Below, piece by piece: positions 30,442 through 62,767 of a stretch of 64,000 nucleotides of DNA. The notes beneath the pieces are model-generated. The model worked only from the letters and a program-made list of their open reading frames with translations. It did no database searches and was not told where the DNA came from. The translations under genes were made by a program, and so were the position numbers. Origin of the DNA: an uncultured Ignavibacteriales bacterium (GTDB lineage Bacteria; Bacteroidota; Ignavibacteria; Ignavibacteriales; Ignavibacteriaceae); assembly GCA_963739985.1 (NCBI GenBank), contig CAVUCE010000015.1:6990-70989 (forward strand). The letters are read 5' to 3'. How positions within the stretch are numbered: the stretch's first letter is position 1; each line of letters begins with the position of its first letter.

Positions 30442-30445
30442 TAAA

Positions 30446-30469: not shown

Positions 30470-30496
30470 AATTTTTAATTTAAATCTTCACTTTAG

Positions 30497-31444: not shown

Positions 31445-31453
31445 TTTTTGCCT

Positions 31454-38768: not shown

Positions 38769-39536
38769 TTGTATGGAAAAATGAATGGAGCAACGTTGAA
38801 GAAGATAAAATTATTGAATTCAGGTTTGCCAATGATAGATAAAGCTTGGGGAGGATTTTATCGGGCAGCAACATATTTAATGATCGGACAAAGAAAATCC
38901 GGTCGAACATCTTTAGCATTACAGTTTGCAAAAGAATGTGTTAAACAAAAAGAAGTTTGTCTTTACATAACAAATATTCGTCCTAAAGAATTATTAATTC
39001 ACGCCTCTTCGATAGATTTTGATCTTCAAGAAGCAATGAATAAAAACGAAGTTATCGTTGTAAAAGTTGTTCCACCTACAGGAACTGAAATTTCAACAAA
39101 CCCAGATCAATTTTTAGCAGAATATTTAAAAGATATTATTACAGTTGTAGATGAATATCAGCCAACCAAAATTGTATTTGATGAATTAACTCCTTTTATC
39201 GAGTTTGAAAATCCCGACTACTTACATGATGTTTTTGCCCAGACAATTGAAGAAATTGAAGATATGGGAATCACTAACTTTTTCGTCTTAAGCGATCCGG
39301 CTACCGAACCAGCAGTTGAATTAATTGAATCATTAGTCAGTGCATCAACAGGTGTAATTTATTTGAAGAAAGATGATGAAGGAACCAGTGGAGAGATAAC
39401 TATTACTCCCAATGTTGGTCATCCCGAGGGTAAGTTTAAAGCAAAATACAAAATTGAACCTTATATAGGAATGACATTTGATGAGAACAAAGTTCCGGAA
39501 TCACCGAGCAAAAATACTTCTATTAAAGAGTTATAA
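38769..39536 (+). CDS. KaiC/RecA-like P-loop-fold protein with degenerate Walker A (GQRKSGRT)
   Basis: LPMIDKAWGGFYRAATYLMIGQRKSGRTSLALQF... aligns by eye to the KaiC/RadA pattern G.D...GG...G...L..G..G.GKT...LQF, but has Arg in place of the P-loop Lys. A Walker-B-like KIVFDELTPF is present. It is a paralog of the N-terminal half of 39586-40842. Confidence 0.65.
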   Translation: MYGKMNGATLKKIKLLNSGLPMIDKAWGGFYRAATYLMIGQRKSGRTSLALQFAKECVKQKEVCLYITNIRPKELLIHASSIDFDLQEAMNKNEVIVVKVVPPTGTEISTNPDQFLAEYLKDIITVVDEYQPTKIVFDELTPFIEFENPDYLHDVFAQTIEEIEDMGITNFFVLSDPATEPAVELIESLVSASTGVIYLKKDDEGTSGEITITPNVGHPEGKFKAKYKIEPYIGMTFDENKVPESPSKNTSIKEL

Positions 39537-39585
39537 AATTTTAAGTATATGATCAAATATTATTTAATAATAGATAAGTTATAAG

Positions 39586-40842
39586 ATGCGACAAAAGATA
39601 CAAATCAGCCGTTCTGGAATAATGCTAGTAGATAAAGCATGGGGAGGATTTTACCGTGGAGGCACCTATTTACTAATCGGTCCTCGAAAATCCGGTAGAA
39701 CTTTACTTAGCCTTCAGTACGCGATGGAAAGCGCACGCCAAAAGGAAGTCTGCTTATACTTTACGAGTATGCGTCCAAAGGACTTGATGATCCAAGCAGC
39801 CTCAATAGACTTTGATCTTCAGCATTATATGAACCAAAACTTGATCATAGTAGTAAGAGTGGCGCCACCATCAGACTTATACGAGGTAGGCAACCCGGAT
39901 GAGTTTTTGGTAGAGTATCTTAACGACATAGTCACAGTAGTAGACCAGTACCAGCCAAATAAAATAGTATTTGACGAGTTAACGCCATTTATCGGTTTCA
40001 GTAACGTAGATCTTTTAGAGGAAGTCTACTCCAGAACAGCCGAAACGATAGAGGATATAGGTATAACAAGTTTATTTACGGTAGGAGATCCGGCCACACC
40101 GGCAGCCAGTCATATAGTAGACGCATTGGCCAATCACTCCACCGGCATCATATACCTAAAGAAGTCGGAAGAAGACGAGTTGACTGAAATGGGCAGAACG
40201 CAAGGCGGGAAGATGATCATAACGCCAAACATCGGCCATACAGAAGGAAAGTTCAGCTCAAATTATTATATAGAGCCGTACCGCGGCATCACTGTAGATT
40301 ACGGAAATGAAGAAAGTAATAGTTACGGAGAATCTTCCGGTAGCGTCACACAGTCCCGCAAGTATAAATCGCTAGCAGAGATAGATTTGCCGAACGAGCA
40401 AGTATCTTTCTCTAACATATATACCATGAACGATTTCAATTTAATCTTAAATAACCAGATAGCCTTGTATAAGAGTACCGGTCAGATATTTACAATAATC
40501 TCATTCCGATTGGATTTTACGGCAGAGAAGTTGGGATTATTGACTATCAGCCAGTTACAGAACGCAGTTCGTTTATCCACGGATAAGAAGGATAAGATCT
40601 GCATAATCAACGATAAGGTTATAGTTTTAGTAACGAAGGATGACCCCAAGGGTATCAACTTCTTTATAGGTAAGATAAAGAGCAATCTTCCGAACAGCGA
40701 ACCGGGTTACTTGAGCCGTGTTCTTCAGTATATTTCTGTTTACGCAGTAAAGGTAGATGATCGAGTTCAGAGTGCAGAAGACATATTGGGTCAGTTATTA
40801 TCGGAAGATATCCCGGAAAAAAACAAATTAGGATTTCACTAG
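39586..40842 (+). CDS. KaiC/RecA-like (degenerate P-loop GPRKSGRT) fused to a degenerate GGDEF-like C-terminal domain, copy 1
   Basis: The N-terminal half resembles 38769-39536. The C-terminal roughly 130 aa (MNDFNLILNNQIALYKSTGQIFTIISFRLDF...RLSTDKKDKICIINDKVIVLV...FIGKIK) follows the GGDEF-domain secondary-structure and hydrophobic pattern, with INDK where GGDEF would sit. Confidence 0.6.
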   Translation: MRQKIQISRSGIMLVDKAWGGFYRGGTYLLIGPRKSGRTLLSLQYAMESARQKEVCLYFTSMRPKDLMIQAASIDFDLQHYMNQNLIIVVRVAPPSDLYEVGNPDEFLVEYLNDIVTVVDQYQPNKIVFDELTPFIGFSNVDLLEEVYSRTAETIEDIGITSLFTVGDPATPAASHIVDALANHSTGIIYLKKSEEDELTEMGRTQGGKMIITPNIGHTEGKFSSNYYIEPYRGITVDYGNEESNSYGESSGSVTQSRKYKSLAEIDLPNEQVSFSNIYTMNDFNLILNNQIALYKSTGQIFTIISFRLDFTAEKLGLLTISQLQNAVRLSTDKKDKICIINDKVIVLVTKDDPKGINFFIGKIKSNLPNSEPGYLSRVLQYISVYAVKVDDRVQSAEDILGQLLSEDIPEKNKLGFH

Positions 40843-41651
40843 AAGAAAGCTGCAATGAAACAAGTAATACTATCATCACTGCTACTTATACTAATTCTAG
40901 GGGGAATAGGACAGCGTGTTTACGGCCAGATAAATCCGGAAGCGATGAGAAATGAAGCCGAGCAAGAGATGAAGTTCGGCAGATACGGGGAGTCAATAGA
41001 TTTGTTGAACCGCTATATTTCAGCCCGTCCACAGAAGGCAGATGGTTATAATTTACGGGGAATCTGTTATGAGAAGCGAGAGCAGTTTGAGTTGTCTGTA
41101 TATGATTATCGATCGGCTCGAAAACTTGATCCAAGTAACAAAGAAATCCGGAAGAATTTAGAGAGAGCGACAAGTACTTGGTATAAGTTGCTATATAATA
41201 ATATAGAGGGATATAAGAGGGAAATAGCGATAAACCCAAATAAGGCAGAGAATTATTTAGAGATAGGTAAAGCATATAAGAATTTAGGCAAGTGGGAAGT
41301 AGCCGAGCAATGGTATGATCAGTATTTGGCGAGGGAACATGCATCACCGGATGAGATAATAAGGTATACGGAGATACTGGCGAAGAATAATCATATAGCC
41401 AAGGGTTGGCCGATACTGAAGAAGTATACAGATGAATATCCGGAAGACCAGCGGTTGTGGTCACGTTACGGATATTTTTCAATGTGGTTGGGAAAGAATA
41501 AGATAGCGATAAAGGCATTTGAGAATGCCTTGGCATTGAAGCCATATTTTAAGGAAGCACAAGACGGATTAGATCAAGCCAAGGGTAAGGGATATATTTA
41601 TACTGTTAACGATACTGCTTCAAGATATAATTATGGGATGCCTGTTCCGGC
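39586..41651 (+). repeat. direct repeat copy 1 (2,066 bp)
   Basis: Offset 5,735 nt to copy 2. The encoded 418-aa proteins are identical except R9/H9 (g39611 vs a45346). The intergenic 12 nt and the first 265 codons of the next gene are identical. Antisense ORF translations are also identical, which implies near-100% nucleotide identity. Confidence 0.9.
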
Positions 41652-43758
41652 AAAATACAAACAGTATGCTATTGATAAATATTATTCAATATTAAAAAAG
41701 CGCCCTGATGATAATGAAATTAGATTCAAATTAGTAAAGGAATTAGTAAAAGCGGAAAGATATTCAGAAGCCAATGATGAATTACAAACTTTAATTCAAG
41801 ATACAAGTAAAACTGAATATCAAGACTATTACACTAATTTTAAATCTCTCAGGGATAGTGTCTTTGAGAAGAGAATAACCGACTATGCAGCCAAGTTTAA
41901 AGCAGATCCACATAATAAAGAAGTAGCAATAAAACTTGCTGATGCTTATGGCCATACATATGATTTTGACAGTTCAATGGAAGTATTGTCAGAATATCTT
42001 AAAGGAATTCCTGAAAATAAAGAATTAGATGTAAGATTTTTATATGCTAAATACGCATCATGGAATTACGAATGGAACGAAGCTAGGGTGACTCTTGATA
42101 ACTTATTAAAATATGATCCTAATAATTTAGATTATCAATTACTCAGTGCCCAAATAACTGCCTGGAATGTAACTGAATCTAAACAAGAAGAAATTGATAA
42201 TGCCAGTAGATATATAAAAAATGTTCTTGCAAAAGATCCTAATAATATGCTTGCTTTGATTGCTGAAGTATATCTAAAATCCGGACAGGGTGACATGGTC
42301 TCAGCCAAAAAAGTTGTGGATCAGTTAAAAACTTTATATCCTGAAAAGAAAGAAATAACAGCTATTCAAAATTATTATAATACGCGACTTCTTGTTGCTA
42401 AAGAAAAAGAAATACTTAATATGCGAGGAAAAGCCGGTAAACTATATCTGGCCGGCAATTGTAATGATGCTTTGAAAATTTATGACGATATTTTCGAAAG
42501 GGAAAAAAATCCAAGCAGAGACCTGATTCTTGAATACGCTTCGGTTAGTTCATGTGCAAAAGCGTATACTCAAGCAATAGATTTATACAATCAGGCATTA
42601 AATTTAAGCTATGATAGTGAAACTGCTAGTTTACTTGCTCTAAATTATTTATGGTCCGGTGATACAACTAAATGCTTAATTATGTTACAAGATTTGCAAG
42701 AAAAAAATCCATCAGATTTTCGTACTAATTATTATTTAGGTGATATTTACGAACGAACTAAACAACCTGAAAAAGCTATAGCAATATATGATAGACTCTT
42801 GTCTGATTCTTTAAGAAGCAATTTAGATTCAACACAAATTGCAACATTAGAAACTAGATTAGGTTATCTTAACACCGGATTCGGAGGAGGCTTTGGAAGG
42901 TTTCCTGCATACGTTGCACTTTCACCGATGGCATCTTATTATGCAGATAACCAAGATTTTAGATTATCAGATATTGGTGGGCGGTTAGAGGTAGGAATTA
43001 CCAGTTTCTTAACAATAGGTGCTTCATATTCCCGAACCGGATTAACTAATAAATATTATACAAGATATTTAAGCTCTAACAAGTGGCTTGCATATTTAAG
43101 ATTGGTTAAAGGATTAACAGCTTCAGTCGGCTTCGGAACAATTCATACCGTTGGCTATTCTCCAAAAAACATCGCTGATGCTTCATTGAAGTACCAGGGT
43201 GTTGAAGATAGATTGACTACTTCATTATCTTATGAAACAACAGACGGAAGACTAGCTTTATATTCACCTTATATATTAGATAAAGATTACAGAGTAAACA
43301 TTGTTAGATTTAATATTGATTATTTATTCAGATCAGGTTTTAAGGTATTAGCTAATTATCAACACCTTTCAATAAGCGATAATAATAGCGGAGATAATCT
43401 CCAATTCAGATTAGGTAAATCGCTATACAAAGATTTGTTTATCGGATATGAATATTTGTATTCCAATTTTTCGTTCATGTCTTCATACTATTACTCCCCG
43501 GCAAGTTTTAGTGCACATAGCATTTGGTTTGATTGGAGGCCGTTAAACGAAGACAATATAAAATTAGATTTTGGCGGAAAGTTCGGTTATGTTCCGCAGA
43601 GCGATTACTTGCTTAGAGAAGGATTTGGGCAAATAACCTATAAACCACTTCCTATATTAAATATTGTAGCGAGAATTTCAGCAGCAAGTTCTTATCGATA
43701 TGATGGAAGTTATAACTATTTATCTGGTTTAATTTCGGCATATATCAGCTTGTTTTAA
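40855..43758 (+). CDS. outer-membrane polysaccharide export protein A: TPR region plus C-terminal beta-barrel (PgaA/BcsC/PelB-like)
   Basis: Signal peptide, about 600 aa of TPR-like repeats (ADGYNLRGICYEKREQFELSVYDYRSARKLDPSN...). The C-terminal roughly 300 aa shows an alternating hydrophobic beta-strand pattern ending ...SAYISLF, an OMP-type terminal Phe. Confidence 0.65.
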   Translation: MKQVILSSLLLILILGGIGQRVYGQINPEAMRNEAEQEMKFGRYGESIDLLNRYISARPQKADGYNLRGICYEKREQFELSVYDYRSARKLDPSNKEIRKNLERATSTWYKLLYNNIEGYKREIAINPNKAENYLEIGKAYKNLGKWEVAEQWYDQYLAREHASPDEIIRYTEILAKNNHIAKGWPILKKYTDEYPEDQRLWSRYGYFSMWLGKNKIAIKAFENALALKPYFKEAQDGLDQAKGKGYIYTVNDTASRYNYGMPVPAKYKQYAIDKYYSILKKRPDDNEIRFKLVKELVKAERYSEANDELQTLIQDTSKTEYQDYYTNFKSLRDSVFEKRITDYAAKFKADPHNKEVAIKLADAYGHTYDFDSSMEVLSEYLKGIPENKELDVRFLYAKYASWNYEWNEARVTLDNLLKYDPNNLDYQLLSAQITAWNVTESKQEEIDNASRYIKNVLAKDPNNMLALIAEVYLKSGQGDMVSAKKVVDQLKTLYPEKKEITAIQNYYNTRLLVAKEKEILNMRGKAGKLYLAGNCNDALKIYDDIFEREKNPSRDLILEYASVSSCAKAYTQAIDLYNQALNLSYDSETASLLALNYLWSGDTTKCLIMLQDLQEKNPSDFRTNYYLGDIYERTKQPEKAIAIYDRLLSDSLRSNLDSTQIATLETRLGYLNTGFGGGFGRFPAYVALSPMASYYADNQDFRLSDIGGRLEVGITSFLTIGASYSRTGLTNKYYTRYLSSNKWLAYLRLVKGLTASVGFGTIHTVGYSPKNIADASLKYQGVEDRLTTSLSYETTDGRLALYSPYILDKDYRVNIVRFNIDYLFRSGFKVLANYQHLSISDNNSGDNLQFRLGKSLYKDLFIGYEYLYSNFSFMSSYYYSPASFSAHSIWFDWRPLNEDNIKLDFGGKFGYVPQSDYLLREGFGQITYKPLPILNIVARISAASSYRYDGSYNYLSGLISAYISLF

Positions 43759-43861
43759 TAAAATATCTTCTGATAACTAATGCTCATAGTTTGTCGGAAA
43801 TTAAATCAAGCATTAAATTTTAACATATTAAATAAATGATTCTATATTCAGGAGGCAAATA

Positions 43862-45124
43862 ATGGTTCGTATTTCGAATATTCGGATGTTATTAACGATT
43901 TTAATATTTTTTTGTTTAGCACTTCCTTCTAGCCTAATTAAAGCAAAAGATAATAACAATTCATCTGAAAAATTGAATAATAATTCCGCAGCATATTACA
44001 GTGGGTACGGAAAGAAAGTCCCAATAACCGGTAACGTATCAGAATTAAAAAACTTTTTTGACGCATTAAGTACCACAAAACAAGATAAAATTAGAATAGC
44101 ACATTACGGAGATTCAGTAATATGGGGAGATATTATTACTGATGATTTGAGACAAGATTTTCAAGATAAATTCGGCGGCCACGGTGCAGGTATCCAATCT
44201 GTTTGTTCCGACGATATAAAAGTTAAAGAAACTACAAAACACACTTTCTCTGATAATTGGAAATGGAATTCTCTCTTTACCTCAAACATTGAAAATTTTC
44301 CAATCGGAATTGCGGCTACCTCGGCAACTCCAAAAGGGAATAGCGCATGGATTAAGTACGAAGCTACAAATTTTAGAGAATCTTCAAACTCATTTAAAAT
44401 TGCAAAATTATTTTACAATAACGTAAATGCTGGTGCAAGTATTAAATATTCATTTAACAATGGTCCCGAACAAACAGCTAAACTGAAAGCCGGCAAGAAT
44501 CTTCAAGAATTTGAGATGAACTCATCCGGCAGCGCAAGATCATTAAAAATTACGTTTGAAAATTGCCAGGGTGGTTACTTTTATGCCGTAAGCTTAGAAG
44601 ATGGCAATGGAGTTTATGTTGACAACTTTCCGTTGAGAGGTAACTCGGGAGCTTCATTATTAGATTTTAATGAAGATTTAATGAAAGACTTTAACAAAAA
44701 ATTGAACTATAAACTAATTATTCTAAACTATGGTTTAAATATTGCTTCGGCTGAACAAACTAACTATGAATGGTACAAGCACAAAATGATCCGAGTAGTT
44801 AAATCTTTTCAAAAGAATTTTCCTGATGCTAGTATTTTATTCATGGGAGTTGGAGATAGAAGCATAAAAAAGGGGTCAAGATTTGTTTCTGATCCGGCAG
44901 TTGAAAGATTAATATCGGTACAAAAAGAAATTGCTGAAAAAACGAACGTTGCATTTTGGAATTTATTTGAGGCAATGGGCGGTAAAAATTCGATGACTGA
45001 CTGGGTACAAGCTCGTCCGGCTTTAGGTTATGTTGATTATTCACATTATACTCCTGAAGGCGGAAAATTAGTTGCCGATCTTTTAACTGAAGCATTGATG
45101 GATGCTTATAAAAATTCGCATTAA
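43862..45124 (+). CDS. secreted SGNH/GDSL-fold protein, paralog of 27194-28657
   Basis: IRIAHYGDSVIWGDIITDDLRQDFQDKFGGHGAGI compares with IRIAHFGDSEIEGDLITAELRKKLQSKYGGEGVGY. Similarity continues to the C-terminus (VAFWNLFEAMGGKNSMTDWV vs IAFWNLFNSMGGKNSMGTWV). Confidence 0.65.
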   Translation: MVRISNIRMLLTILIFFCLALPSSLIKAKDNNNSSEKLNNNSAAYYSGYGKKVPITGNVSELKNFFDALSTTKQDKIRIAHYGDSVIWGDIITDDLRQDFQDKFGGHGAGIQSVCSDDIKVKETTKHTFSDNWKWNSLFTSNIENFPIGIAATSATPKGNSAWIKYEATNFRESSNSFKIAKLFYNNVNAGASIKYSFNNGPEQTAKLKAGKNLQEFEMNSSGSARSLKITFENCQGGYFYAVSLEDGNGVYVDNFPLRGNSGASLLDFNEDLMKDFNKKLNYKLIILNYGLNIASAEQTNYEWYKHKMIRVVKSFQKNFPDASILFMGVGDRSIKKGSRFVSDPAVERLISVQKEIAEKTNVAFWNLFEAMGGKNSMTDWVQARPALGYVDYSHYTPEGGKLVADLLTEALMDAYKNSH

Positions 45125-45151
45125 TTTAACCCAAAGTATTATTTTAGCTTA

Positions 45152-45181
45152 AGTGTCTCTGAATAGAGGCACTTTTTTTTG
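45152..45181 (+). terminator. rho-independent terminator after the SGNH paralog
   Basis: agtgtctct / gaat / agaggcact gives a 9-bp stem with one G-U pair, followed by eight T. Confidence 0.75.
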
Positions 45182-45320
45182 AGATTATTGTGAATTATTT
45201 TGATACATATTATGTTCAAAATCTCATTATAAGTATAATTTTTGGACTTATCTTGTTAGAAAGTCATCATTTTTAACGGCACAAAAATTGAAAATTATAC
45301 AAAAAAACAGTTAGGTAATT

Positions 45321-46577
45321 ATGCGACAAAAGATACAAATCAGCCATTCTGGAATAATGCTAGTAGATAAAGCATGGGGAGGATTTTACCGTGGAGGCAC
45401 CTATTTACTAATCGGTCCTCGAAAATCCGGTAGAACTTTACTTAGCCTTCAGTACGCGATGGAAAGCGCACGCCAAAAGGAAGTCTGCTTATACTTTACG
45501 AGTATGCGTCCAAAGGACTTGATGATCCAAGCAGCCTCAATAGACTTTGATCTTCAGCATTATATGAACCAAAACTTGATCATAGTAGTAAGAGTGGCGC
45601 CACCATCAGACTTATACGAGGTAGGCAACCCGGATGAGTTTTTGGTAGAGTATCTTAACGACATAGTCACAGTAGTAGACCAGTACCAGCCAAATAAAAT
45701 AGTATTTGACGAGTTAACGCCATTTATCGGTTTCAGTAACGTAGATCTTTTAGAGGAAGTCTACTCCAGAACAGCCGAAACGATAGAGGATATAGGTATA
45801 ACAAGTTTATTTACGGTAGGAGATCCGGCCACACCGGCAGCCAGTCATATAGTAGACGCATTGGCCAATCACTCCACCGGCATCATATACCTAAAGAAGT
45901 CGGAAGAAGACGAGTTGACTGAAATGGGCAGAACGCAAGGCGGGAAGATGATCATAACGCCAAACATCGGCCATACAGAAGGAAAGTTCAGCTCAAATTA
46001 TTATATAGAGCCGTACCGCGGCATCACTGTAGATTACGGAAATGAAGAAAGTAATAGTTACGGAGAATCTTCCGGTAGCGTCACACAGTCCCGCAAGTAT
46101 AAATCGCTAGCAGAGATAGATTTGCCGAACGAGCAAGTATCTTTCTCTAACATATATACCATGAACGATTTCAATTTAATCTTAAATAACCAGATAGCCT
46201 TGTATAAGAGTACCGGTCAGATATTTACAATAATCTCATTCCGATTGGATTTTACGGCAGAGAAGTTGGGATTATTGACTATCAGCCAGTTACAGAACGC
46301 AGTTCGTTTATCCACGGATAAGAAGGATAAGATCTGCATAATCAACGATAAGGTTATAGTTTTAGTAACGAAGGATGACCCCAAGGGTATCAACTTCTTT
46401 ATAGGTAAGATAAAGAGCAATCTTCCGAACAGCGAACCGGGTTACTTGAGCCGTGTTCTTCAGTATATTTCTGTTTACGCAGTAAAGGTAGATGATCGAG
46501 TTCAGAGTGCAGAAGACATATTGGGTCAGTTATTATCGGAAGATATCCCGGAAAAAAACAAATTAGGATTTCACTAG
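45321..46577 (+). CDS. KaiC/RecA-like plus degenerate GGDEF-like protein, copy 2
   Basis: 418 aa, identical to 39586-40842 except H9 for R9. Confidence 0.6.
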   Translation: MRQKIQISHSGIMLVDKAWGGFYRGGTYLLIGPRKSGRTLLSLQYAMESARQKEVCLYFTSMRPKDLMIQAASIDFDLQHYMNQNLIIVVRVAPPSDLYEVGNPDEFLVEYLNDIVTVVDQYQPNKIVFDELTPFIGFSNVDLLEEVYSRTAETIEDIGITSLFTVGDPATPAASHIVDALANHSTGIIYLKKSEEDELTEMGRTQGGKMIITPNIGHTEGKFSSNYYIEPYRGITVDYGNEESNSYGESSGSVTQSRKYKSLAEIDLPNEQVSFSNIYTMNDFNLILNNQIALYKSTGQIFTIISFRLDFTAEKLGLLTISQLQNAVRLSTDKKDKICIINDKVIVLVTKDDPKGINFFIGKIKSNLPNSEPGYLSRVLQYISVYAVKVDDRVQSAEDILGQLLSEDIPEKNKLGFH

Positions 46578-47386
46578 AAGAAAGCTGCAATGAAACAAGT
46601 AATACTATCATCACTGCTACTTATACTAATTCTAGGGGGAATAGGACAGCGTGTTTACGGCCAGATAAATCCGGAAGCGATGAGAAATGAAGCCGAGCAA
46701 GAGATGAAGTTCGGCAGATACGGGGAGTCAATAGATTTGTTGAACCGCTATATTTCAGCCCGTCCACAGAAGGCAGATGGTTATAATTTACGGGGAATCT
46801 GTTATGAGAAGCGAGAGCAGTTTGAGTTGTCTGTATATGATTATCGATCGGCTCGAAAACTTGATCCAAGTAACAAAGAAATCCGGAAGAATTTAGAGAG
46901 AGCGACAAGTACTTGGTATAAGTTGCTATATAATAATATAGAGGGATATAAGAGGGAAATAGCGATAAACCCAAATAAGGCAGAGAATTATTTAGAGATA
47001 GGTAAAGCATATAAGAATTTAGGCAAGTGGGAAGTAGCCGAGCAATGGTATGATCAGTATTTGGCGAGGGAACATGCATCACCGGATGAGATAATAAGGT
47101 ATACGGAGATACTGGCGAAGAATAATCATATAGCCAAGGGTTGGCCGATACTGAAGAAGTATACAGATGAATATCCGGAAGACCAGCGGTTGTGGTCACG
47201 TTACGGATATTTTTCAATGTGGTTGGGAAAGAATAAGATAGCGATAAAGGCATTTGAGAATGCCTTGGCATTGAAGCCATATTTTAAGGAAGCACAAGAC
47301 GGATTAGATCAAGCCAAGGGTAAGGGATATATTTATACTGTTAACGATACTGCTTCAAGATATAATTATGGGATGCCTGTTCCGGC
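45321..47386 (+). repeat. direct repeat copy 2 (2,066 bp)
   Basis: See copy 1. Identity begins at the ATG and ends after ...cctgttccggc. The two sequences then diverge (caaaataca vs tcctgctta) but both stay in frame. Confidence 0.9.
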
Positions 47387-49463: not shown

Positions 49464-49480
49464 TAATTACAAAAATTTAA

Positions 49481-49501
49481 GTACCGGATATTTGCCGGTA
49501 C
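49481..49501 (+). terminator. terminator-like hairpin after porin B
   Basis: gtaccgg / atatttg / ccggtac is a perfect 7-bp stem. The downstream region is only moderately T-rich. Confidence 0.4.
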
Positions 49502-49783
49502 AATTATTTCATCTCTCAAAATACAAAACAAATTGGAAAATTTTTAATGTATGAATTTTCCAAATTTATGTTCGGATTCTAATATTCGGTTAAATTTTAT
49601 TATCAACACATAAGTCTGCATATATAAAATAATTTATTGTAACGATTTGATACAAAAGTCAAAGTGCAATCTTACTCTGTGACAAATATTTATATAAAAA
49701 GTGCGAAATTGAGCTTGAATAGCAATATTTTGATGGCACCATAATTGAGAAATTCATTAAAAAACAACTAAATAAAGATTACG

Positions 49784-51187: not shown

Positions 51188-51222
51188 CTTTTAATTATAA
51201 TAAATAAATTCGAGAGGCTCGC

Positions 51223-51732
51223 ATGGAACTTATTCCTATTCTATCAACAATCATTCTCGTTGCTACAATAAGCACCTTCTTGTTGGCGATCGGAGCATAC
51301 ATCCTCTATAAAGTTAGAGAAAGAAGAGGACAAGTAGTCACAGCTCCGGAACCAAGTTCAGTGAAGGCAGAGCTTATAACTCCGGCAACAGCACCAGAAC
51401 AAGGTCGCCCTGCTCCAACAGAGCAGCCAATTGTGGTACAACAACCAATGCGTCAGCCTGCATATGCGCAAGCTGGTCAGTCGGTTGATCAAAATGTTAG
51501 ACCAAGTTACACTGTCAAAGAAAAAACTTACTACGAACCTGCTTATGCTCAAACTGGAAGAAAATCTAGAACTACTCAACCGCAAAGAGGTTATCAAGGA
51601 CCCAGCTATGCATCGCAAGGACAGGAAAATAGTAAGGAGACCGGTAGAGAAGCTCGTTTTCTACAATATACAACTGAAGGCTATGTATCAGCAAAAGAAG
51701 ATAAAAACGCAGGAGCATTAAAGTGGCGGTAA
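51223..51732 (+). CDS. single-TM protein with a Pro/Gln/Ala-rich low-complexity tail (occupies the PgaD-like position)
   Basis: N-terminal helix ILSTIILVATISTFLLAIGAYILY followed by RERR, then a disordered-looking tail. A GAGAGG lies upstream of the ATG. The stop overlaps the next gene by 10 nt. Confidence 0.5.
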   Translation: MELIPILSTIILVATISTFLLAIGAYILYKVRERRGQVVTAPEPSSVKAELITPATAPEQGRPAPTEQPIVVQQPMRQPAYAQAGQSVDQNVRPSYTVKEKTYYEPAYAQTGRKSRTTQPQRGYQGPSYASQGQENSKETGREARFLQYTTEGYVSAKEDKNAGALKWR

Positions 51733-53621
51733 AATCGAACAAAGGAAGGGGAATAAATCAACCATTAATTATTATTAGTGGATTACTCTTCCTTTTGGGA
51801 GCGGCCCTTATATACGTTTACATTTTGAGAGGTGTTTACGGAAGATTTAGTGCTAGTGAACTTCTTCCAAAATCAAGTGTAATTGAAAATGTTGTTAATG
51901 GCAGTAAACCTACAATAGCTATTCTTTATTCTAAATATACTGAGAATATGTTACCTGAAGGAAGTACTTGGCTAAGTGATAACATCAATACATGGAAAAA
52001 ATTCTTAAATGCAGGCGGATATAAATATGATGTAATTTCTGATCAAACTATAGAACGCGGTAAACATTTCAAATATAAGTTGATTGTTTTACCGGGCGAT
52101 AAATCTTTAAGTGATAAAGAAATAGTTCAGCTAAAAGAATACATTAATAAAGGCGGAAGTGTTTTCTCTACCAGTGGTATTGCTTCCTATTCAGATAATG
52201 GTAAATGGAGAGGCTGGGATTTCTTGTCTGAGGTCTTTGGTTTGAAATTCAGCAAAGAAATAGATAGAAACGAAGTTACAAAGATTCATACTTTAAGAGG
52301 TGATTTACCGATTACCGCAAATATTCCGACCGGTTTCCCTTTAAAAGTTGCTACCTGGGATCGCCCCATGTCTGTTGAAGTTCTAGATCCTAGAACAACA
52401 CAGGCAAGTTTCTGGTACAATTATCGTTTACAAGACGGACTTTCCAGAGATCAAATTAAAAAGAGTGCCGGAATTGTTTACGGTACTTATGGATATGGAA
52501 GATTCGTTTGGATGGGGTTCGAAATAAATTCAGTTATAGGTGTTCAAGAAGATTATGTTTATTTCGATCGACTTTTCAACAACTGTATTCATTGGTTAAA
52601 TTACGAACCAACAGCTTATGTTAAAGATTGGCCTTCCGGTTATGATGCGGCTGCTATTATTACTCCGGTAATTGGCGACGATCCTAATGAAATAAATAAT
52701 TTGTTAGATGTCCTTCGTAAAGAAAAGGTTAAGGCAAGTTTCTATGTAAAACCGAGTGAAGCCGAAGCCAATAAAAGTTTGATTAAATCTGTTAGTAAAT
52801 ATGGAAATGTAGGTGCCTTGGTTGATATTGGATATTTAAATTCTATTAACGATACAGTTAATACTTTAAATGATTATGACACACAGTTGCAAAAACTCAA
52901 AGATGCTCAATCATCTATTCAATCAATTACCAATAAGCCGGTTAAAGGATTTATGCCTTACTACGGATTGTATGATCAAAATACAATTAAAGCTTTAATC
53001 AATTCCGGTTATAAATATGTCCTTACCGATTCTTTAACCGATAGATCTGTTCCAAGAACTATTGTGCGAGGTGATAGTGTATTAACATCGATTACCAAAA
53101 CTGCTAGAGATGATTATGAGGTTATCAGAGATTTTGGACTAACTAATCCTAATTTTCAGTATTATACTTATCAAGAGGATGTTGATCGTGTACTTTTTGA
53201 AGGCGGATTGTATGTAATGAAAATGCATACTGCTTACCAGTGTAAACCGGATAATATCGGAGTTGTTAAAAATACAATTGATGATCTTAAAAAGAAAAAT
53301 TTCTGGATTACTACGCCTGAAGAAGTTACCAAATGGTGGACTCACAGAAATTATGTTGAAGTTCGTGTGAGAAAAAGAGGAGAAACAAGAATTGCGTTAA
53401 CAGTATCAAACCCTGGTACTGAAGTAGCCAGTAACTTAGTGATAATGGTTAATCTTAATGAACCGGCTAAAAATATTTCTTTGAGTACTGAAATTATCGG
53501 TACTAAAATTGCAAAAATTCAATACGATAAAAGCAGTCATATTATTTATGTTTATATAAATGATTTACAGCCGGGACAATCAAGAGCTTATTATCTTGAT
53601 TATGATAAACCGAACGCTTAG
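51723..53621 (+). CDS. membrane-anchored two-domain protein with a C-terminal polysaccharide-deacetylase (CE4/NodB)-like region
   Basis: GTG start, TM anchor and an N-terminal alpha/beta-looking domain. The later region has VIGDDP, KASFYV, FMPYYG and YVMKMH, resembling CE4 motifs 1, 3 and 5. No HxxxH pair was seen where CE4 motif 2 is expected. Confidence 0.5.
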   Translation: MAVKSNKGRGINQPLIIISGLLFLLGAALIYVYILRGVYGRFSASELLPKSSVIENVVNGSKPTIAILYSKYTENMLPEGSTWLSDNINTWKKFLNAGGYKYDVISDQTIERGKHFKYKLIVLPGDKSLSDKEIVQLKEYINKGGSVFSTSGIASYSDNGKWRGWDFLSEVFGLKFSKEIDRNEVTKIHTLRGDLPITANIPTGFPLKVATWDRPMSVEVLDPRTTQASFWYNYRLQDGLSRDQIKKSAGIVYGTYGYGRFVWMGFEINSVIGVQEDYVYFDRLFNNCIHWLNYEPTAYVKDWPSGYDAAAIITPVIGDDPNEINNLLDVLRKEKVKASFYVKPSEAEANKSLIKSVSKYGNVGALVDIGYLNSINDTVNTLNDYDTQLQKLKDAQSSIQSITNKPVKGFMPYYGLYDQNTIKALINSGYKYVLTDSLTDRSVPRTIVRGDSVLTSITKTARDDYEVIRDFGLTNPNFQYYTYQEDVDRVLFEGGLYVMKMHTAYQCKPDNIGVVKNTIDDLKKKNFWITTPEEVTKWWTHRNYVEVRVRKRGETRIALTVSNPGTEVASNLVIMVNLNEPAKNISLSTEIIGTKIAKIQYDKSSHIIYVYINDLQPGQSRAYYLDYDKPNA

Positions 53622-53639
53622 TTAAAAGATATTATAGAA

Positions 53640-53672
53640 TGAGTAGGTCTCTTTGAGGGAAGGACCTACTCA
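53640..53672 (+). terminator. terminator-like hairpin after the CE4-like gene
   Basis: tgagtaggtc (53640-53649) pairs with gacctactca (53663-53672), giving a 10-bp stem and 13-nt loop. The T-run (gctttttg) lies 8 nt downstream. Confidence 0.5.
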
Positions 53673-53731
53673 GTTAAGCTTTTTGCAGCTATAGGGTGAC
53701 AAATTAAATAGAGGAATTATTAGAGTGCAAT

Positions 53732-54991
53732 ATGAATTCTAAGTTATTAAAATATTTTTCAATCGTGGCTTTTGTTGGTTTTCTAATTTCCGGATGTTCA
53801 GATTTTTTAACCAATACAAGCAATACAGGGGCAACCGGCAACGGTAAAATTAAAATAACTATTCAAAGTCCGTTATCTAATGATTCAGTTGGGTATGGGA
53901 GTACAAAAGTAAACTATACTATAGTCCAGGATTTGGGAGTTAATTTTTTAGAGCTTTATGTTGATGGTAAAATAAATAAGTATATCGCTTTTGATGCATC
54001 CGGAGCAGTTCCAACCATAAATCTTAATATAGATTCATCAAAAATAGGTTCCAAATTTAGTTATTTTGTTATTTATTATGATAAAGACGGTTACTCCGTT
54101 AGAAGTGATACTATGACTAACCTGGTTGTGGTTGAACCCAAATTGCCTCCTTATGCTCCATATAATTTAATTTTAAGCAGACTTACAAAAACCTCTGTAA
54201 ATATAGCTTGGAAAGATTCTTCAAAAGGTGTAACTGGATTTGAAATTTGGAGGAAGATCGGATCAAGTGGTAATTTTGCAAGATATTTAAGCTCAGGTCC
54301 AAAAACATTTAATATTAACGATACAAATTTGAATCCTGATTCAACTTATTATTATAAAATTAGATCTATAAATAAATACGGAGAATCAGATTTCAGTGAA
54401 GTTAAAAGTACAACCGGTTCATCAAACTCTAATGTAGATGCACCATACAATGTAAAAGCAATAGCTACAGGTACAAACGTAGTAAAGCTAACATGGAGCG
54501 CAAACAATACTAACGTGAATTTTTTTAGAGTTGAAAGAAAATATTCTTTTTCAGACTACTCCAGTGTCGGAATTGTAGATGCAAATACTTTTAATTATAC
54601 AGATAGTTTGAACGGTTTAACTGCAGGCGGAGAATATTATTACAGAATAAAAGCATACTCCGGTTCAGATTCAGCAGCGTCTAGTGAAGTTTATGTAAAA
54701 ACACTATCTTACGTTCTTTCCAAACCAAATATTACTTCAATTACTTCAACCGAAAAAGGAATGGTGAAAATAGATTGGGTAATTAATGATTATAGAACGG
54801 CTAATATTGTTATTGAAAGAAAACTTGGAGTTGGCGGAAGTTTCACTCAAGTTGTAAATTTAGATAGTAATATAAGAACCTATTCTGATTCTAGTTTAGT
54901 CTCAGGAGCTACTTATTATTATCGGATGAAAAGAGACGACGGAAGTATTAGTTCGGAATATTCTTCTGAATCAGGTGTAGTTGTTAAGTAA
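53732..54991 (+). CDS. lipoprotein with three or more fibronectin type III domains
   Basis: Lipobox FLISGCS, then repeated FN3 patterns (APYNLILSRLTKTSVNIAWKD...YYYKIRSINKYGESDFS; APYNVKAIATGTNVVKLTWS...YYYRIKAYSG). Confidence 0.75.
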   Translation: MNSKLLKYFSIVAFVGFLISGCSDFLTNTSNTGATGNGKIKITIQSPLSNDSVGYGSTKVNYTIVQDLGVNFLELYVDGKINKYIAFDASGAVPTINLNIDSSKIGSKFSYFVIYYDKDGYSVRSDTMTNLVVVEPKLPPYAPYNLILSRLTKTSVNIAWKDSSKGVTGFEIWRKIGSSGNFARYLSSGPKTFNINDTNLNPDSTYYYKIRSINKYGESDFSEVKSTTGSSNSNVDAPYNVKAIATGTNVVKLTWSANNTNVNFFRVERKYSFSDYSSVGIVDANTFNYTDSLNGLTAGGEYYYRIKAYSGSDSAASSEVYVKTLSYVLSKPNITSITSTEKGMVKIDWVINDYRTANIVIERKLGVGGSFTQVVNLDSNIRTYSDSSLVSGATYYYRMKRDDGSISSEYSSESGVVVK

Positions 54992-55098
54992 AATTTCTAC
55001 TAAAGTAAGATTTTAAAAACTTTTGTTTATAAATTTATGATTCGAAATAATAAATAATTTTTAGGAAAACAATCGGTATTAGTTTTTAAATAACAAAA

Positions 55099-58000
55099 GT
55101 GAATAGCTTGCAAGCAGAAAATAATATAAATATAAATCTCTTTTCGGCACTTAACCGGAATATAAAAGACCCATTCATTGTACTAGACCATAGCGGGAAT
55201 ATTTTATCCCTGAATGAACAAGCTGAATCTCTTTTTAATCTTTCCGGAAATAGATCCAATTTTTATAAACTTTTTGACTCTCAAACTTCGGATAAGATAA
55301 AGAAACTTATTGAACAGATAATTTCAGAAACTAATTTTATATCCGAAAATATTATTCTAAGTCTAAAGTCGGGAACAGAAATTAATTCTGAGATAACCTT
55401 AAGCTGTTATCAAGAAGAAAATGAATTATTTGTTTTTTGCTCGATAAAAAAAATCCAGTCTAAACTTGAACCAGCCGGAACTACCGAAGTAAAAGTTGTT
55501 ACTCAAGAATTAGCAAAAATTATACGCAATAAAAGCGTACTTAGTATAATTGAAGATATAAAATCCCTTTATCCTTTTACTTTTATCGGAAAAGAAAAAG
55601 TACTTAAAGGAGCTAATAAACTGGAAGAACTTTTTTGGATTAAGGATTCTAAAGGAATATACGTTTTAATTAACAAAGCGTTATCAAAAGGATTAGGTTT
55701 ACGCACTACTCTTGTTGAGGGAAAATCAGCAAGTTCATTTATTCCTGCATATTTAGTAGGATTTTATGAAGCAATTGAGACTTATATTCGTGATTCCGTA
55801 AATGTAATTATGATTGAAGGAATTCCTATTAAAGGAATTTCTGCGTATGAAAATTACCAAACAATTGAAATACCTTTAGTTGATTCTGATAATAACCTAA
55901 TTGCAACAATTGGTATAGCTCAGAAAAAAATAAGTAAAAATGATACAGAATGGAATGAAATACTTTTCGGTTCAAAATTGGATATGCTTGTAAATTGGCC
56001 GGAAAAGGTAGCTATTCTTGATAAGGACGGGAATTTTAAGCATGGAAGTAAAGATTTTTGTAAATTATTTTCACTTGAAATTAAGAACTTAAGAGAAAAT
56101 AATTTTCGGAATTCATTACCGGAAAATCTAATACAAAAGGTTAATGAATTTCTTGAATCATCTGTTCTTGAAGAAAAATTTGAAATAAATTCTTCCGCGG
56201 AATTAGAGATAAATTCTAAAGAATTCCTGGAAGTTTTTTTAAACAAAATATACGATAAAGAAAACGACTTAGTTGGTTTTTCTGTTGTAATAAAAGAAAA
56301 ACAAAATTTTGATGATGTTGAAAACTTTATAAACAGCCGAGGAAGAATGTTTGAAATTTTAATCCAAAATAATCCGGAACCTATTTTTATATACGATACA
56401 GAAAATTTAAGGTTCCTAGAAGTTAATGATTCAGCTTTGTCTCTTTACGGTTATAGAAAAGATGAATTTTTACAAATGGATTTAACCGACTTATACACAC
56501 CGGAAGATATTCAAACTTTACTTGATTCTTCTTCCTCAACAAAAGAAGGTACTTTTTCGGGACCATTCAGACATAAAAAGAAAGACGGTTCATCTGTTTT
56601 TGTAGAAATCAGTAAAATTACTTTTACTTTTCAAGATCGTGAAGCACATTTTAATATTATAAAAGATGTTTCCGCTAATCTTGATCTCGAGAAGAAACTA
56701 CAGCTATTCAAATCGGCTTTTAACAATACTGATGATGTTATTTTTATTACTGATAATACCGGAATCATTAAATTTGTAAATCAAGCAGCACTAAAGAAAC
56801 TTGATAAATCAAAAAATGATTTGGAAAATATTTCTTTTACATCTTTGGTTAAAGATGAGGAACGCGGCTCTATTAATTCATCAATTTTTAAATCTCACTT
56901 AAAGGATGAGGTTACAATTTTTACCGAACTTAAATCAGGTAAGGATGAATTTATAAATGTAGAATTGAATGCTACTCCTATTCTAGATTATAATGAAGAA
57001 ATAGATTCTTATACAATATTGTGTAAGATTCAAGTTGAGCCCGTTGAGCCGAAAGAGATTATAAAGGAAGTAATAAAAGAAGTAGTTGTTGAAAAGGAAG
57101 TCCCTTCTAAAACACCGGTTACCAATGCAGACAATTCAGCCTTTTTATCCAGTATGTTCCATGAAATTTTAACTCCTATAAATGTGATTCTAGGATTTGT
57201 TGAAGAGCTAACAGATGGAATTTCGGATAAAAACAAAGATCAAAAAGAAGCTGCTGATATTATAAATCAGAATAGAGAGCGTTTGCTTTCTACCATGAAT
57301 TCGGTTTTAGAGTATTCAAATATTCAACAAAATAAAATTGATCTTAACGTAGAAACAGTAGCAATTACACAGGTAATAGATCAGCTTCAGCAAGATATTA
57401 GTGATATTGTTGGCTCTAGAAATATTGAATTTGGTTATGGTAAAATTTCGTCTTCTCTCAGCTTTGAAACTGATAGGAATAAATTTCAAAGTTTAATATC
57501 ACAACTTTTTAGAATTGTAACTCATATTTCCAGGGAAAAAAAGATTTACTTCTCAGCTTATCAACTTAATGATGACTCATTTATTATTGCGATAAAAGAT
57601 AATTATAACTCTATCTCACGTTGGCTGATGGAAAACCTTATCGGATTATTTACCAAAGGGGAAGCAGGATTATCAAAAGATTTTGGAATACCTAAACTAA
57701 CGGTACAACTCGCCACTGCTTTGTTAAAAATTCTAAAAGGAAATGTAGATACTATTCAAAATGATAATGAAAAAGTTGAATGCGGATTTATTTTCCCAAT
57801 TAATATAAATGAGTATGCAGATTTTAATTCGCTTCGTTCATCAGAATTTGAATCAGACACACAAGAAGATATAGAGGAAAACATATCGGAGGAAGTGTTT
57901 GAGGAATCGGTTCAAAATGTAACAGAAGATGAACTTGATTCGGAAGAGCAAATTGATCATGAGGAAGAACCGGATTATTCATTCCCGGACTTTTCTGATG

Positions 58001-58575
58001 AAGATGAAGAAGTCAGCAGTTCTAACTCTGATGATTTTGAATATATAGAATCAAAATTAAATCACGAAATTCAGATTCCTGAAGAAAATGACGATAATTC
58101 CATTGAAGAAGATCAGGAAATAAACGAAGAACCCGTTGCTGATGATAAAGAGACAGAGATTCCTTACTATTCTCCGAAAAATATCAATCGCCTAGATTTG
58201 TCAAATCTTAATTGTCTTTATATAGAAGATCAAGTTGATTCTCAGATTCTCTTTAAAGTTCAAATGAAGGAACTAAAAGAGATTAAATTTGCAGTAAGTT
58301 TTGAAGAAGCTTTACCGCTTCTAGATACCGAACATTTTGATTTTATTGTTATGGACATAAATTTACAAGGTGAGTATAATGGTTTGGATGCGCTAAAGAT
58401 TGTTCATAAAATGCCTGAGTATCAAAATATTCCTATCATTGCGGTTACGGCTTATGTTTTACCGGGTGACAAGGAAAAATTCATTGCAGTCGGGTTTAAT
58501 GATTTTATTTCAAAGCCAATTTTTAAAGAAAAAATGGTTGATTCACTAGAAAAAATTTTCCTACCTCAAATCTAA
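55099..58575 (+). CDS. multi-PAS hybrid sensor kinase-like protein with an acidic linker and C-terminal receiver
   Basis: GTG start and several PAS-like segments. H-box SMFHEILTPINVILGF is present, followed by a region lacking clear N/G1/G2 ATP-lid boxes. Next comes about 110 aa of Asp/Glu-rich linker, then a receiver (LYIEDQ ... FIVMDINLQG ... IIAVTAY ... FISKP). Confidence 0.7.
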   Translation: MNSLQAENNININLFSALNRNIKDPFIVLDHSGNILSLNEQAESLFNLSGNRSNFYKLFDSQTSDKIKKLIEQIISETNFISENIILSLKSGTEINSEITLSCYQEENELFVFCSIKKIQSKLEPAGTTEVKVVTQELAKIIRNKSVLSIIEDIKSLYPFTFIGKEKVLKGANKLEELFWIKDSKGIYVLINKALSKGLGLRTTLVEGKSASSFIPAYLVGFYEAIETYIRDSVNVIMIEGIPIKGISAYENYQTIEIPLVDSDNNLIATIGIAQKKISKNDTEWNEILFGSKLDMLVNWPEKVAILDKDGNFKHGSKDFCKLFSLEIKNLRENNFRNSLPENLIQKVNEFLESSVLEEKFEINSSAELEINSKEFLEVFLNKIYDKENDLVGFSVVIKEKQNFDDVENFINSRGRMFEILIQNNPEPIFIYDTENLRFLEVNDSALSLYGYRKDEFLQMDLTDLYTPEDIQTLLDSSSSTKEGTFSGPFRHKKKDGSSVFVEISKITFTFQDREAHFNIIKDVSANLDLEKKLQLFKSAFNNTDDVIFITDNTGIIKFVNQAALKKLDKSKNDLENISFTSLVKDEERGSINSSIFKSHLKDEVTIFTELKSGKDEFINVELNATPILDYNEEIDSYTILCKIQVEPVEPKEIIKEVIKEVVVEKEVPSKTPVTNADNSAFLSSMFHEILTPINVILGFVEELTDGISDKNKDQKEAADIINQNRERLLSTMNSVLEYSNIQQNKIDLNVETVAITQVIDQLQQDISDIVGSRNIEFGYGKISSSLSFETDRNKFQSLISQLFRIVTHISREKKIYFSAYQLNDDSFIIAIKDNYNSISRWLMENLIGLFTKGEAGLSKDFGIPKLTVQLATALLKILKGNVDTIQNDNEKVECGFIFPININEYADFNSLRSSEFESDTQEDIEENISEEVFEESVQNVTEDELDSEEQIDHEEEPDYSFPDFSDEDEEVSSSNSDDFEYIESKLNHEIQIPEENDDNSIEEDQEINEEPVADDKETEIPYYSPKNINRLDLSNLNCLYIEDQVDSQILFKVQMKELKEIKFAVSFEEALPLLDTEHFDFIVMDINLQGEYNGLDALKIVHKMPEYQNIPIIAVTAYVLPGDKEKFIAVGFNDFISKPIFKEKMVDSLEKIFLPQI

Positions 58576-62765: not shown

Positions 62766-62767
62766 TT

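Follow-up and report, generated by a model that had tools for sequence, protein, structure and literature searches.

A putative synthase-dependent exopolysaccharide locus with KaiC-like/degenerate-GGDEF proteins in an uncultured Ignavibacteriales bacterium

Our analysis of a 64,000-nucleotide stretch of DNA from an uncultured Ignavibacteriales bacterium (contig CAVUCE010000015.1 of assembly GCA_963739985.1, positions 6,990 to 70,989; hereafter the window, in whose own numbering all positions are given) indicates that a run of eleven genes between 38769 and 58575 probably specifies a system for the synthase-dependent secretion of an exopolysaccharide, one that belongs to a lineage not described so far. 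Among these genes are a processive family 2 glycosyltransferase (GT2), two exporters that combine tetratricopeptide repeats (TPR) with a predicted outer-membrane beta-barrel (porins A and B below), and two copies of a protein in which a KaiC-like domain is fused to a degenerate GGDEF domain (the fusion below). We draw on gene content, domain folds, motif states, conservation across genomes, promoter elements and an internal repeat, all of which are directly seen. An earlier note on this DNA, made from the sequence alone, had listed the same eleven genes on one strand, and our map of the open reading frames (ORFs), all on the + strand, agrees with it in coordinates and order.

What kind of protein is the fusion? 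In profile searches of the window proteins against Pfam and NCBIfam, from which our domain annotation is taken, its N-terminal half scores 74-76 bits on the KaiC-like family PF06745 against a cut-off of 26.6, and an AlphaFold model of the full-length protein (pLDDT 76) matches KaiC structures with E ~1e-15. The earlier note had called the domain ATPase-dead-looking, and alignment to KaiC and RecA agrees: Arg38 stands at the position of the Walker A lysine, and Ser61-Met62 occupy the positions of the catalytic glutamate pair of KaiC. Of 78 full-length orthologs, 64 have Arg and 14 have Lys at the lysine position; the glutamate pair is replaced in nearly all by Ser or Asn followed by Met (Met in 75 of the 78) and in no case kept as Glu, while the Asp-Glu pair of Walker B is invariant. 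In distant relatives of the fusion Walker A reads G-x-A-x-S-G-R-[G/D], so that both Lys and Ser/Thr are missing; in the short KaiC-like protein of the window it reads GQRKSGRT. Despite these altered ATPase motifs, the sequence would still be compatible with nucleotide binding. Loci contain between 1 and 3 Kai-like genes, which encode full-length fusions, short forms of 245-310 aa or both (L001/L023, L024, L034, L044), and in many loci short paralogs of ~245 aa lie upstream of the fusion gene; this variation suggests either mixed rings or frequent duplication. Neither kaiA nor kaiB is found in the locus.

The C-terminal 150 aa of the fusion match no Pfam family even at E<=5, and sequence searches with them returned nothing. 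A fold search with the full-length model was dominated by KaiC matches; when residues 270-418 were modelled separately (AlphaFold, pLDDT 84) a GGDEF fold was resolved, the top 41 matches in the PDB all being GGDEF domains (E from 9e-5, TMq 0.50-0.65, probability 0.99-1.00) and PelD appearing at rank 47. Structure prediction thus bears out the degenerate GGDEF domain that had been proposed behind the KaiC-like domain. The position of the GG[D/E]EF motif reads I-N-D-K-V in the window fusion and [ILV][SNDKG][ND][KN][VI] across the 78 orthologs, never GGDEF-like, and with this motif lost the domain therefore cannot be a cyclase. One distant relative (P0203) reads RDSD-KASYE-GDRIL-VLLPG, near the canonical RxxD-x5-GGDEF-xxLLP, and so provides a link in sequence between the family and true GGDEF domains. 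The I-site register, five residues upstream of the motif position, is RxxD in this relative and in three others (P0207, P0195, P0168), an approximate assignment made from one MAFFT alignment of nine sequences. Going by these residues, the family could plausibly include receptors of the PelD type, though for its window member such a role is unsupported. The earlier note had also seen no receptor for cyclic di-GMP (c-di-GMP) in the locus. It is right that Pfam recognises no PilZ, EAL or GGDEF domain there; absence of c-di-GMP input, however, is not established, since relatives keep RxxD.

The synthase has 2+3 predicted membrane helices. Among profile models its best match is PgaC/IcaA (1.3e-58), followed by NodC (1.2e-31) and CelA (9.1e-17), and among the processive synthases in the PDB the hyaluronan synthases outscore BcsA. 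It stays below the cut-off on each of the three models, with 198.9 bits against 422.3 for PgaC/IcaA (TIGR03937) and 60.3 bits against 699.1 for CelA (TIGR03030), and it carries no PilZ domain. We take its PGPIGLFR motif to be like that of synthases that polymerise N-acetylhexosamine (HexNAc) and unlike the FFCGS of BcsA. Since the synthase is closest to PgaC, NodC and the hyaluronan synthases, the polymer probably contains HexNAc.

The small membrane partner encoded after the synthase found no family in Pfam or NCBIfam. Its helix (residues 1-33) is >90% conserved in 57 orthologs and is followed by positive residues, a variable Pro/Gln-rich cytoplasmic linker and a C-terminal motif, F-x-x-Y-T-x-E-G-Y, that is conserved in distant loci as well. 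The CE4-like protein consists of an N-terminal anchor, a GH42M/GATase1-like domain, a CE4-fold domain (a weak match, E=7.6e-5) and a C-terminal beta-rich part in which Pfam detects no family at E<=5. In 25 orthologs the Asp-Asp and His-x3-His positions are not conserved; the later CE4 motifs are retained, and D436, D463, D464, E466, E485, D486, E493 and H502 are invariant, a set of acidic residues plus H502 that points to some other function, in catalysis or in binding. The ENA annotation of a 99%-identical contig splits this gene in two, of 142 and 465 aa. The slot taken by the FN3 lipoprotein gene is variable, and in some loci a CE4-like paralog occupies it instead.

The two porins are 52% identical overall and ~38% identical in their C-terminal 330 aa, and this C-terminal region clusters into two groups, in keeping with the two alternative porins described earlier. 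Seven porins have an SGNH gene behind them, and all seven cluster with porin A; most genomes carry a B-type module only. On the PgaA equivalog model (TIGR03939) the window porins reach 40.6 and 48.2 bits against a cut-off of 366.65, over the TPR region only. Their C-terminal ~300 aa are rich in G/Y/S/T/N (~40% of residues), they end in ...AYWTL (A) and ...AYISLF (B), endings of the outer-membrane beta-signal type, and a terminal ...[AS][FY]W[ST][FL] is conserved in 30 porin orthologs; a scan for beta-amphipathicity was mildly informative. Taken together these features of the sequence would fit an outer-membrane beta-barrel. The second copy of the fusion that had been noted earlier is indeed a second gene, but the repeat does not stop with it: a stretch of 2,066 bp runs, with sharp boundaries, from the ATG of the fusion to codon 266 of the porin, and the two fusions differ by a single residue, R9H. 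In a further species (L033) the modules also stand in tandem, in the order fusion, porin A, SGNH, short Kai, porin B. The tandem arrangement therefore predates the repeat, and the identity of the two repeat copies reflects recent homogenisation by gene conversion. Within the two repeat copies lie identical ORFs of 219 aa on the - strand (40886-41545 and 46621-47280), which are almost certainly not genes because they are of low complexity and lie opposite conserved TPR coding sequence.

How is such a locus transcribed? The 56 regions upstream of GT2 genes align with a conserved block TGGCA[CT]-N5-TTGA, and the window has 4 matches to the pattern GGCAY-N5-TTGR where 1.4 would be expected, three of the four at the starts of units, before the first Kai-like gene, fusion copy B and the GT2 gene. 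Of the 154 + strand matches in the other loci, 125 stand shortly before a Kai-like gene (72) or a GT2 gene (53), the element typically standing 40-48 nt before the start codon and preceding 53 of 59 GT2 genes; a relative with 63.5% G+C also has a sigma-54-type element. As we read them, the elements have the -24/-12 geometry of sigma-54 promoters with an atypical -12 dinucleotide. Further upstream, alignment and enriched k-mers give AGAGACA and TAATACA before Kai-like genes and TGATACA and TGTAACA before GT2 genes, conserved motifs that may be activator binding sites. The element GGCA[CT]-N5-TTG[AG] occurs in nearly all loci, among L001-L084 and L087, and in L001 each of two fusion genes is preceded by its own.

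The element before the first Kai-like gene ends at 38764, near the start that had been proposed for that gene. The ORF is there; its start is probably 38781 or 38796 rather than 38769. The terminator that had been placed after the SGNH gene is present, as a 10-bp stem with a T-run. The 320-nt gap before the GT2 gene holds no coding ORF, and Rfam gave no match at all over 35-60 kb at a permissive threshold, so that no known riboswitch, the c-di-GMP riboswitch included, precedes GT2; a scan for sigma-70-type promoters gave fewer sites than shuffled sequence and was uninformative.

Conservation as a unit had been set beforehand as one test of the proposal. One genome per GTDB species was scanned, which gave 281 fusion relatives, and the loci of the best 80 of the 281 were surveyed; nearly all of the 80 carry Ignavibacteria or Bacteroidetes labels as metagenome-assembled genomes (MAGs). 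The gene set is kept as a unit in ~55 of them, with the porin and synthase units adjacent and on the same strand, and the recurrent order is [fatty-acid hydroxylase]-[REC]-GH9-[short Kai]-fusion-TPR porin-[SGNH]-GT2-small protein-CE4-like-[FN3 or CE4-like paralog]-PAS sensor. When 1.84 billion representative proteins were searched with a profile, 1,057 fusion relatives came up, very divergent full-length ones among them, and homologs of one divergent relative are labelled Rhodothermales. Moreover, three distant loci (L085, L086, L087) were found at 50-64% G+C. Two of them, L085 and L086, have the order fusion-TPR protein-GT2-small protein-two CE4-like proteins, with identities to the window proteins of 23% for the fusion, 22-23% for the porin (the alignment reaching the C-terminal end), 57-58% for GT2, 70% for the small protein (membrane helix only) and 25-26% for the CE4-like protein; L087 has a fusion-porin pair (fusion ~30% over the N-terminal domain) and no neighbouring GT2. 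This recurrence implies that a core of five genes (fusion, TPR porin, GT2, small membrane protein, CE4-like) is old and has been kept together, so the locus is conserved as a unit in Ignavibacteria and its core in distant relatives at 22-58% identity. The small partner (16034-16459 in L085, 16012-16518 in L086) keeps F-x-x-Y-T-x-E-G-[YF] in addition to its ~70% identical helix, despite the 23% identity of the fusions. As had also been expected, the locus has no high-identity match to a characterised exopolysaccharide operon, and full-text searches of the literature found no description of the cluster, nor of a protein with KaiC-like and GGDEF-like domains in polysaccharide loci.

Several further genes belong to this picture. 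In most of the surveyed Ignavibacteria loci the gene immediately before the fusion gene encodes an exported GH9 protein with a signal peptide or lipobox and a DAGD motif; its closest relatives in the PDB are GH9 endoglucanases (beta-1,4-glucanases), and it is a candidate for a periplasmic enzyme that trims the polymer. The fatty-acid hydroxylase is found in 45 of the surveyed loci and the response regulator in 36. At the other end, the hybrid sensor has its phospho-acceptor His and REC Asp and a long acidic linker before the receiver domain; Pfam finds no HATPase_c match in it at E<=0.01, and the N, G1 and G2 boxes of its ATP-binding domain (residues ~790-900) are lost in the window protein and 8 orthologs. 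The GH9 gene, the sigma-54-type promoters, the loss of the CE4 metal site and this degenerate ATP-binding domain of the kinase are additions to the earlier note.

The SGNH protein has readable GDS, GxN and DxxH, that is, intact Ser-Asp-His motifs, which make it a candidate polymer acyltransferase or esterase; each SGNH gene inside the loci follows a porin that groups with type A. The Dlt-like module to which the earlier note had tied it is present at 27194-32956 and does contain a paralog, with 47% identity. Such a module is unusual for a Gram-negative lineage. One hypothesis is that the SGNH enzyme of the locus acylates the polymer by way of this module, with acetyl or aminoacyl as candidate groups.

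From these observations we infer the following for the polymer, the topology, the protein interactions and the regulatory role. A processive GT2 in the inner membrane would polymerise and translocate the polymer together with its conserved single-pass partner, a membrane-anchored CE4-fold protein that lacks the usual metal site would handle it in the periplasm, where the exported GH9 hydrolase may trim it, and it would leave the cell by way of the TPR protein, whose C-terminal end would form a beta-barrel in the outer membrane. Transcription would start from sigma-54-type promoters before the Kai/porin unit or units and before the synthase unit; promoters of this type require an enhancer-binding activator, which would therefore be encoded elsewhere. 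By analogy with PelD, BcsE-BcsQ, PssE or YdaK, the fusion most likely serves in the cytoplasm as a non-hydrolysing subunit that forms rings and has a regulatory or scaffold role, and it possibly docks on the conserved tail that the small membrane partner would extend into the cytoplasm. This genome carries two export modules in tandem, module A comprising fusion, porin A and the putative SGNH acyl-transfer enzyme, and module B fusion and porin B, with recent gene conversion having equalised the fusion genes and the first 266 porin codons. Could one go further? A more detailed version, which we offer as tentative and hold to be rather doubtful, is that the fusion forms a hexameric pseudo-ATPase ring that senses a nucleotide through its P-loop or its I-site-like loop, docks on the F-x-x-Y-T-x-E-G-Y tail and gates polymerisation; with the alternative porin modules, one with and one without SGNH, a single synthase could then export two polymers that differ in acylation, possibly aminoacylated via the Dlt-like module.

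A number of observations weigh against our reading of the locus as a synthase-dependent secretion system regulated in this way. The -12 element of the promoters is TTGA or TTGG rather than TTGC (GA or GG in place of GC), and no gene for a sigma-54 activator is found among the window genes. The I-site register of the window fusion is DKKD, not RxxD, and c-di-GMP input through that site is therefore unsupported in this protein. The CE4-like protein is without its metal ligands, so that deacetylation is doubtful. Searched with a profile of the 330-aa C-terminus, the barrel domain of the porin has no relative among solved structures (the matches are at chance level), and Pfam gives faint OMP_b-brl and BCSC_C hints alone. 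Four loci (L061, L075, L076, L082) have the GH9-fusion-porin triad without an adjacent GT2 operon, and the GH9 gene occurs in none of the three distant loci. Moreover, we found no biochemical or genetic data on any member in the searchable literature.

How do other explanations fare? The locus might be an ordinary pgaABCD operon for poly-N-acetylglucosamine (PNAG) that has diverged, with the Kai-like genes as unrelated passengers. Porin, CE4-like protein, GT2 and small membrane protein do parallel PgaA/B/C/D, PgaC/IcaA is the best family of the synthase and PgaA is among the TPR matches; but the scores are low (199 against 422 bits for PgaC, 41-48 against 367 for PgaA), the small protein has one helix and no family, and the CE4 metal motifs are lost. 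Moreover, in the window 10-13 nt separate the fusion gene from the porin gene that follows it, the two genes are still neighbours across two classes at 23% identity, and passengers would not persist in this way, which makes this explanation quite improbable. We also regard as unlikely a cellulose system of the bcs type, with GH9 in place of BcsZ, the TPR porin as BcsC and a beta-1,4-glucan as product. The locus lacks PilZ and BcsB, the CelA score (60 bits against 699) lies well below the PgaC and NodC scores, the PGPIGLFR of the synthase is unlike the motif of BcsA, and the distant relatives keep the rest of the cluster without GH9. A bcs-type system would account for the GH9 gene upstream, since the proteins of known structure nearest to its product are beta-1,4-endoglucanases, and for a faint BCSC_C match in 1 of 30 barrel domains (E=0.096), and the E. 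coli Bcs regulators, too, are a P-loop NTPase and a degenerate GGDEF protein (PMC7439463).

The triad of GH9, fusion and porin could also be a separate system, for glycan uptake or degradation or some other envelope function, that neighbours the GT2 operon by chance. This is what the four loci with a lone triad would suggest, as would the place of the GH9 gene, upstream of the first promoter element and not after it; yet ~55 loci have both units adjacent, on the same strand and with the same promoter element, in the distant relatives the fusion-porin pair is followed by GT2 after 25-47 nt with no GH9, and pairing of a TPR-barrel protein with a GT2 synthase is a hallmark of synthase-dependent export (PMC9384988). 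We see only a slim chance for it. Finally, a sharply bounded repeat of 2,066 bp in which the copies differ at one base, lying in a metagenome-assembled contig, invites the suspicion of an assembly artefact, through a collapsed or mis-joined repeat or a mixture of strains. However, a second assembly in ENA (contig_25455), ~99% identical elsewhere, has the same tandem structure in the same order, a Logan unitig from an independent assembly of a read set (ERR11523667) equals exactly the 2,066-bp repeat copy 2, as expected for a node with two contexts, the flanks of the copies differ and encode complete, diverged porin C-termini, and L033 has tandem modules. An artefact is therefore extremely unlikely, and we reject it as the source of the repeat.

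The positions of all features are collected in the table. The window has ~33% G+C, the nearest homologs of its genes carry Ignavibacteriaceae or Ignavibacteriales MAG labels, and the ENA contig mentioned above, of 725 kb, holds the same locus. Downstream of the locus follow genes for a LexA repressor (58810-59433), a TonB-dependent receptor (60263-62113) and an ECF sigma/anti-sigma pair (62262-63397), which appear unrelated to it. Elsewhere in the window two proteins, one like GHL10-family glycosidases and the other built of FN3/Ig repeats, end in C-terminal sorting domains of type IX secretion (16876-18756 and 25755-26705), and therefore the organism appears to have a type IX secretion system.

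Table. Features of the putative exopolysaccharide locus and of the Dlt-like module, in window positions.
Feature	Positions	Strand	Remarks
SGNH paralog (Dlt-like module)	27194-28657	+	47% identical to locus SGNH
Carrier-like protein, 78 aa (Dlt-like module)	28685-28921	+	WDSL motif; weak PP-binding match, E=0.028
MBOAT/DltB-like protein (Dlt-like module)	28942-30441	+	DltB model 200 bits, below cut-off
Formyltransferase-like protein (Dlt-like module)	30497-31444	-	
DltA-like adenylating enzyme (Dlt-like module)	31454-32956	-	305 bits, below cut-off
Fatty-acid-hydroxylase-family membrane protein	35697-36338	+	Pfam; conserved upstream neighbour
Single-domain response regulator	36335-36757	+	Pfam; conserved upstream neighbour
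Exported GH9 glycoside hydrolase	36826-38475	+	CelD_N Ig-like and GH9 catalytic domain, PF00759 6.5e-73
Sigma-54-type -24/-12 element P1, GGCATAATATTTGG	38751-38764	+	before first Kai-like gene
Short KaiC-like protein, 255 aa, without C-terminal domain	38769-39536	+	PF06745 2.8e-21
KaiC-like/degenerate-GGDEF fusion copy A, 418 aa	39586-40842	+	KaiC-like N-terminal half 1.2e-20
Repeat copy 1, 2,066 bp	39586-41651	+	one mismatch, at 39611
TPR and predicted outer-membrane beta-barrel exporter type A, 967 aa	40855-43758	+	signal peptide, TPR repeats
Exported SGNH/GDSL protein, 420 aa	43862-45124	+	weak Pfam match, 3.3e-7; motifs read in translation
Intrinsic-terminator-like hairpin and T-run	45151-45174	+	10-bp stem, directly after SGNH gene
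Sigma-54-type element P2, GGCACAAAAATTGA	45278-45291	+	43 nt before fusion copy B
KaiC-like/degenerate-GGDEF fusion copy B, 418 aa	45321-46577	+	R9H relative to copy A
Repeat copy 2, 2,066 bp	45321-47386	+	matches copy 1
TPR and predicted outer-membrane beta-barrel exporter type B, 957 aa	46590-49463	+	commoner type
Conserved region upstream of GT2	49635-49690	+	TGATACA and TGTAAC motifs
Sigma-54-type element P3, TGGCACCATAATTGA	49734-49748	+	before GT2 gene; pattern match at 49735-49748
Processive GT2 synthase, 467 aa	49784-51187	+	DGD, PGPIGLFR, AED, QRYRW
Single-pass membrane partner, 169 aa	51223-51732	+	no family; one membrane helix
CE4-like membrane-anchored periplasmic protein, 632 aa	51723-53621	+	weak CE4 match, 39 bits
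FN3-repeat lipoprotein, 419 aa	53732-54991	+	lipobox ISGC and FN3 domains
PAS-PAS-HisKA-(degenerate catalytic domain)-acidic linker-REC hybrid sensor, 1158 aa	55099-58575	+	

Soils, sediments, bioreactors and subsurface biofilms commonly harbour Ignavibacteria; the locus is widespread in this poorly cultured group and is therefore a candidate matrix system for it. As a corollary of the two modules, the locus offers a natural case in which two alternative export modules are served by one synthase, which makes the matching of porin and modification specificity testable.

How does the locus compare with systems already known? The parallel that had been drawn with PgaA/B/C/D is sound in architecture, with scores under all equivalog cut-offs. 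PgaABCD of E. coli, which makes poly-beta-1,6-GlcNAc, likewise has an inner-membrane GT2 with a small partner, a periplasmic CE4-fold protein and a TPR and beta-barrel exporter. However, the small partner here has one predicted helix and a long cytoplasmic tail where the PgaD type has two helices, the CE4-like protein is without the Asp/His/His metal site and has no family for its C-terminal part where PgaB has GH153, and the locus adds GH9, the KaiC-like/GGDEF-like protein, sigma-54-type promoters and an optional SGNH gene. With the Bcs system it shares a TPR-barrel exporter, an endoglucanase and regulators built from a P-loop NTPase and a degenerate GGDEF domain. BcsZ, however, is a GH8 enzyme whereas the hydrolase here is GH9; no BcsB-like gene and no PilZ or GIL domain is found in the locus, its GT2 is not BcsA-like, and its NTPase is of the RecA/KaiC type and fused to the GGDEF-like domain, whereas BcsQ is of the MinD/ParA type. 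In E. coli the cytosolic Bcs regulators are BcsQ, a P-loop NTPase, and BcsE, which contains a degenerate GGDEF domain (PMC7439463, PMC8892547).

A catalytically dead GGDEF domain encoded within an exopolysaccharide locus is also what one finds in PelD, in PssE of the Listeria Pss system and in YdaK of the Bacillus Yda system. Pel uses a GT4 enzyme, and the GT2 synthase sets the present locus apart from it. The three receptors are membrane-anchored, PelD with a GAF domain, and bind c-di-GMP via RxxD (PMC4125290); the fusion here has instead a KaiC-like partner domain, no membrane helix and DKKD at the I-site. It shares its fold and the family PF06745 with single-domain KaiC-like proteins (archaeal ArlH/FlaH) and with the CI and CII domains of KaiC, from which it differs in the Arg of Walker A in most members, in the absence of the catalytic glutamates in all, and in a GGDEF-like C-terminal domain that is unique to it. 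For a KaiC-like ring in control of a membrane machine, ArlH offers a precedent. As in alginate export (AlgI/AlgJ/AlgF/AlgX) and DltABCD, there is an exported SGNH-fold enzyme in an export locus, with a paralog beside MBOAT, carrier-like and DltA-like proteins; there is, however, no MBOAT gene inside the exopolysaccharide locus, and the SGNH protein matches no DltD or AlgX/AlgJ family model.

Thus a processive GT2, a TPR exporter with a probable beta-barrel, a modifying enzyme and a hydrolase, the general features of the synthase-dependent class, are found in one locus, and the combination is, as had been suspected, that of no described system, falling outside both Pga and Bcs and being absent from the literature that we searched. 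The well-studied members of the class, cellulose, PNAG, alginate and Pel, have each taught something of the coupling between polymerisation, modification and export and of the way in which second messengers turn it on. The present locus follows the same overall logic with a different control module, a RecA-fold pseudo-ATPase fused to a dead GGDEF domain, whose gene adjoins that of the porin even where the fusions are 23% identical; this protein is likely a regulator and, as such, would be new for synthase-dependent polysaccharide systems.

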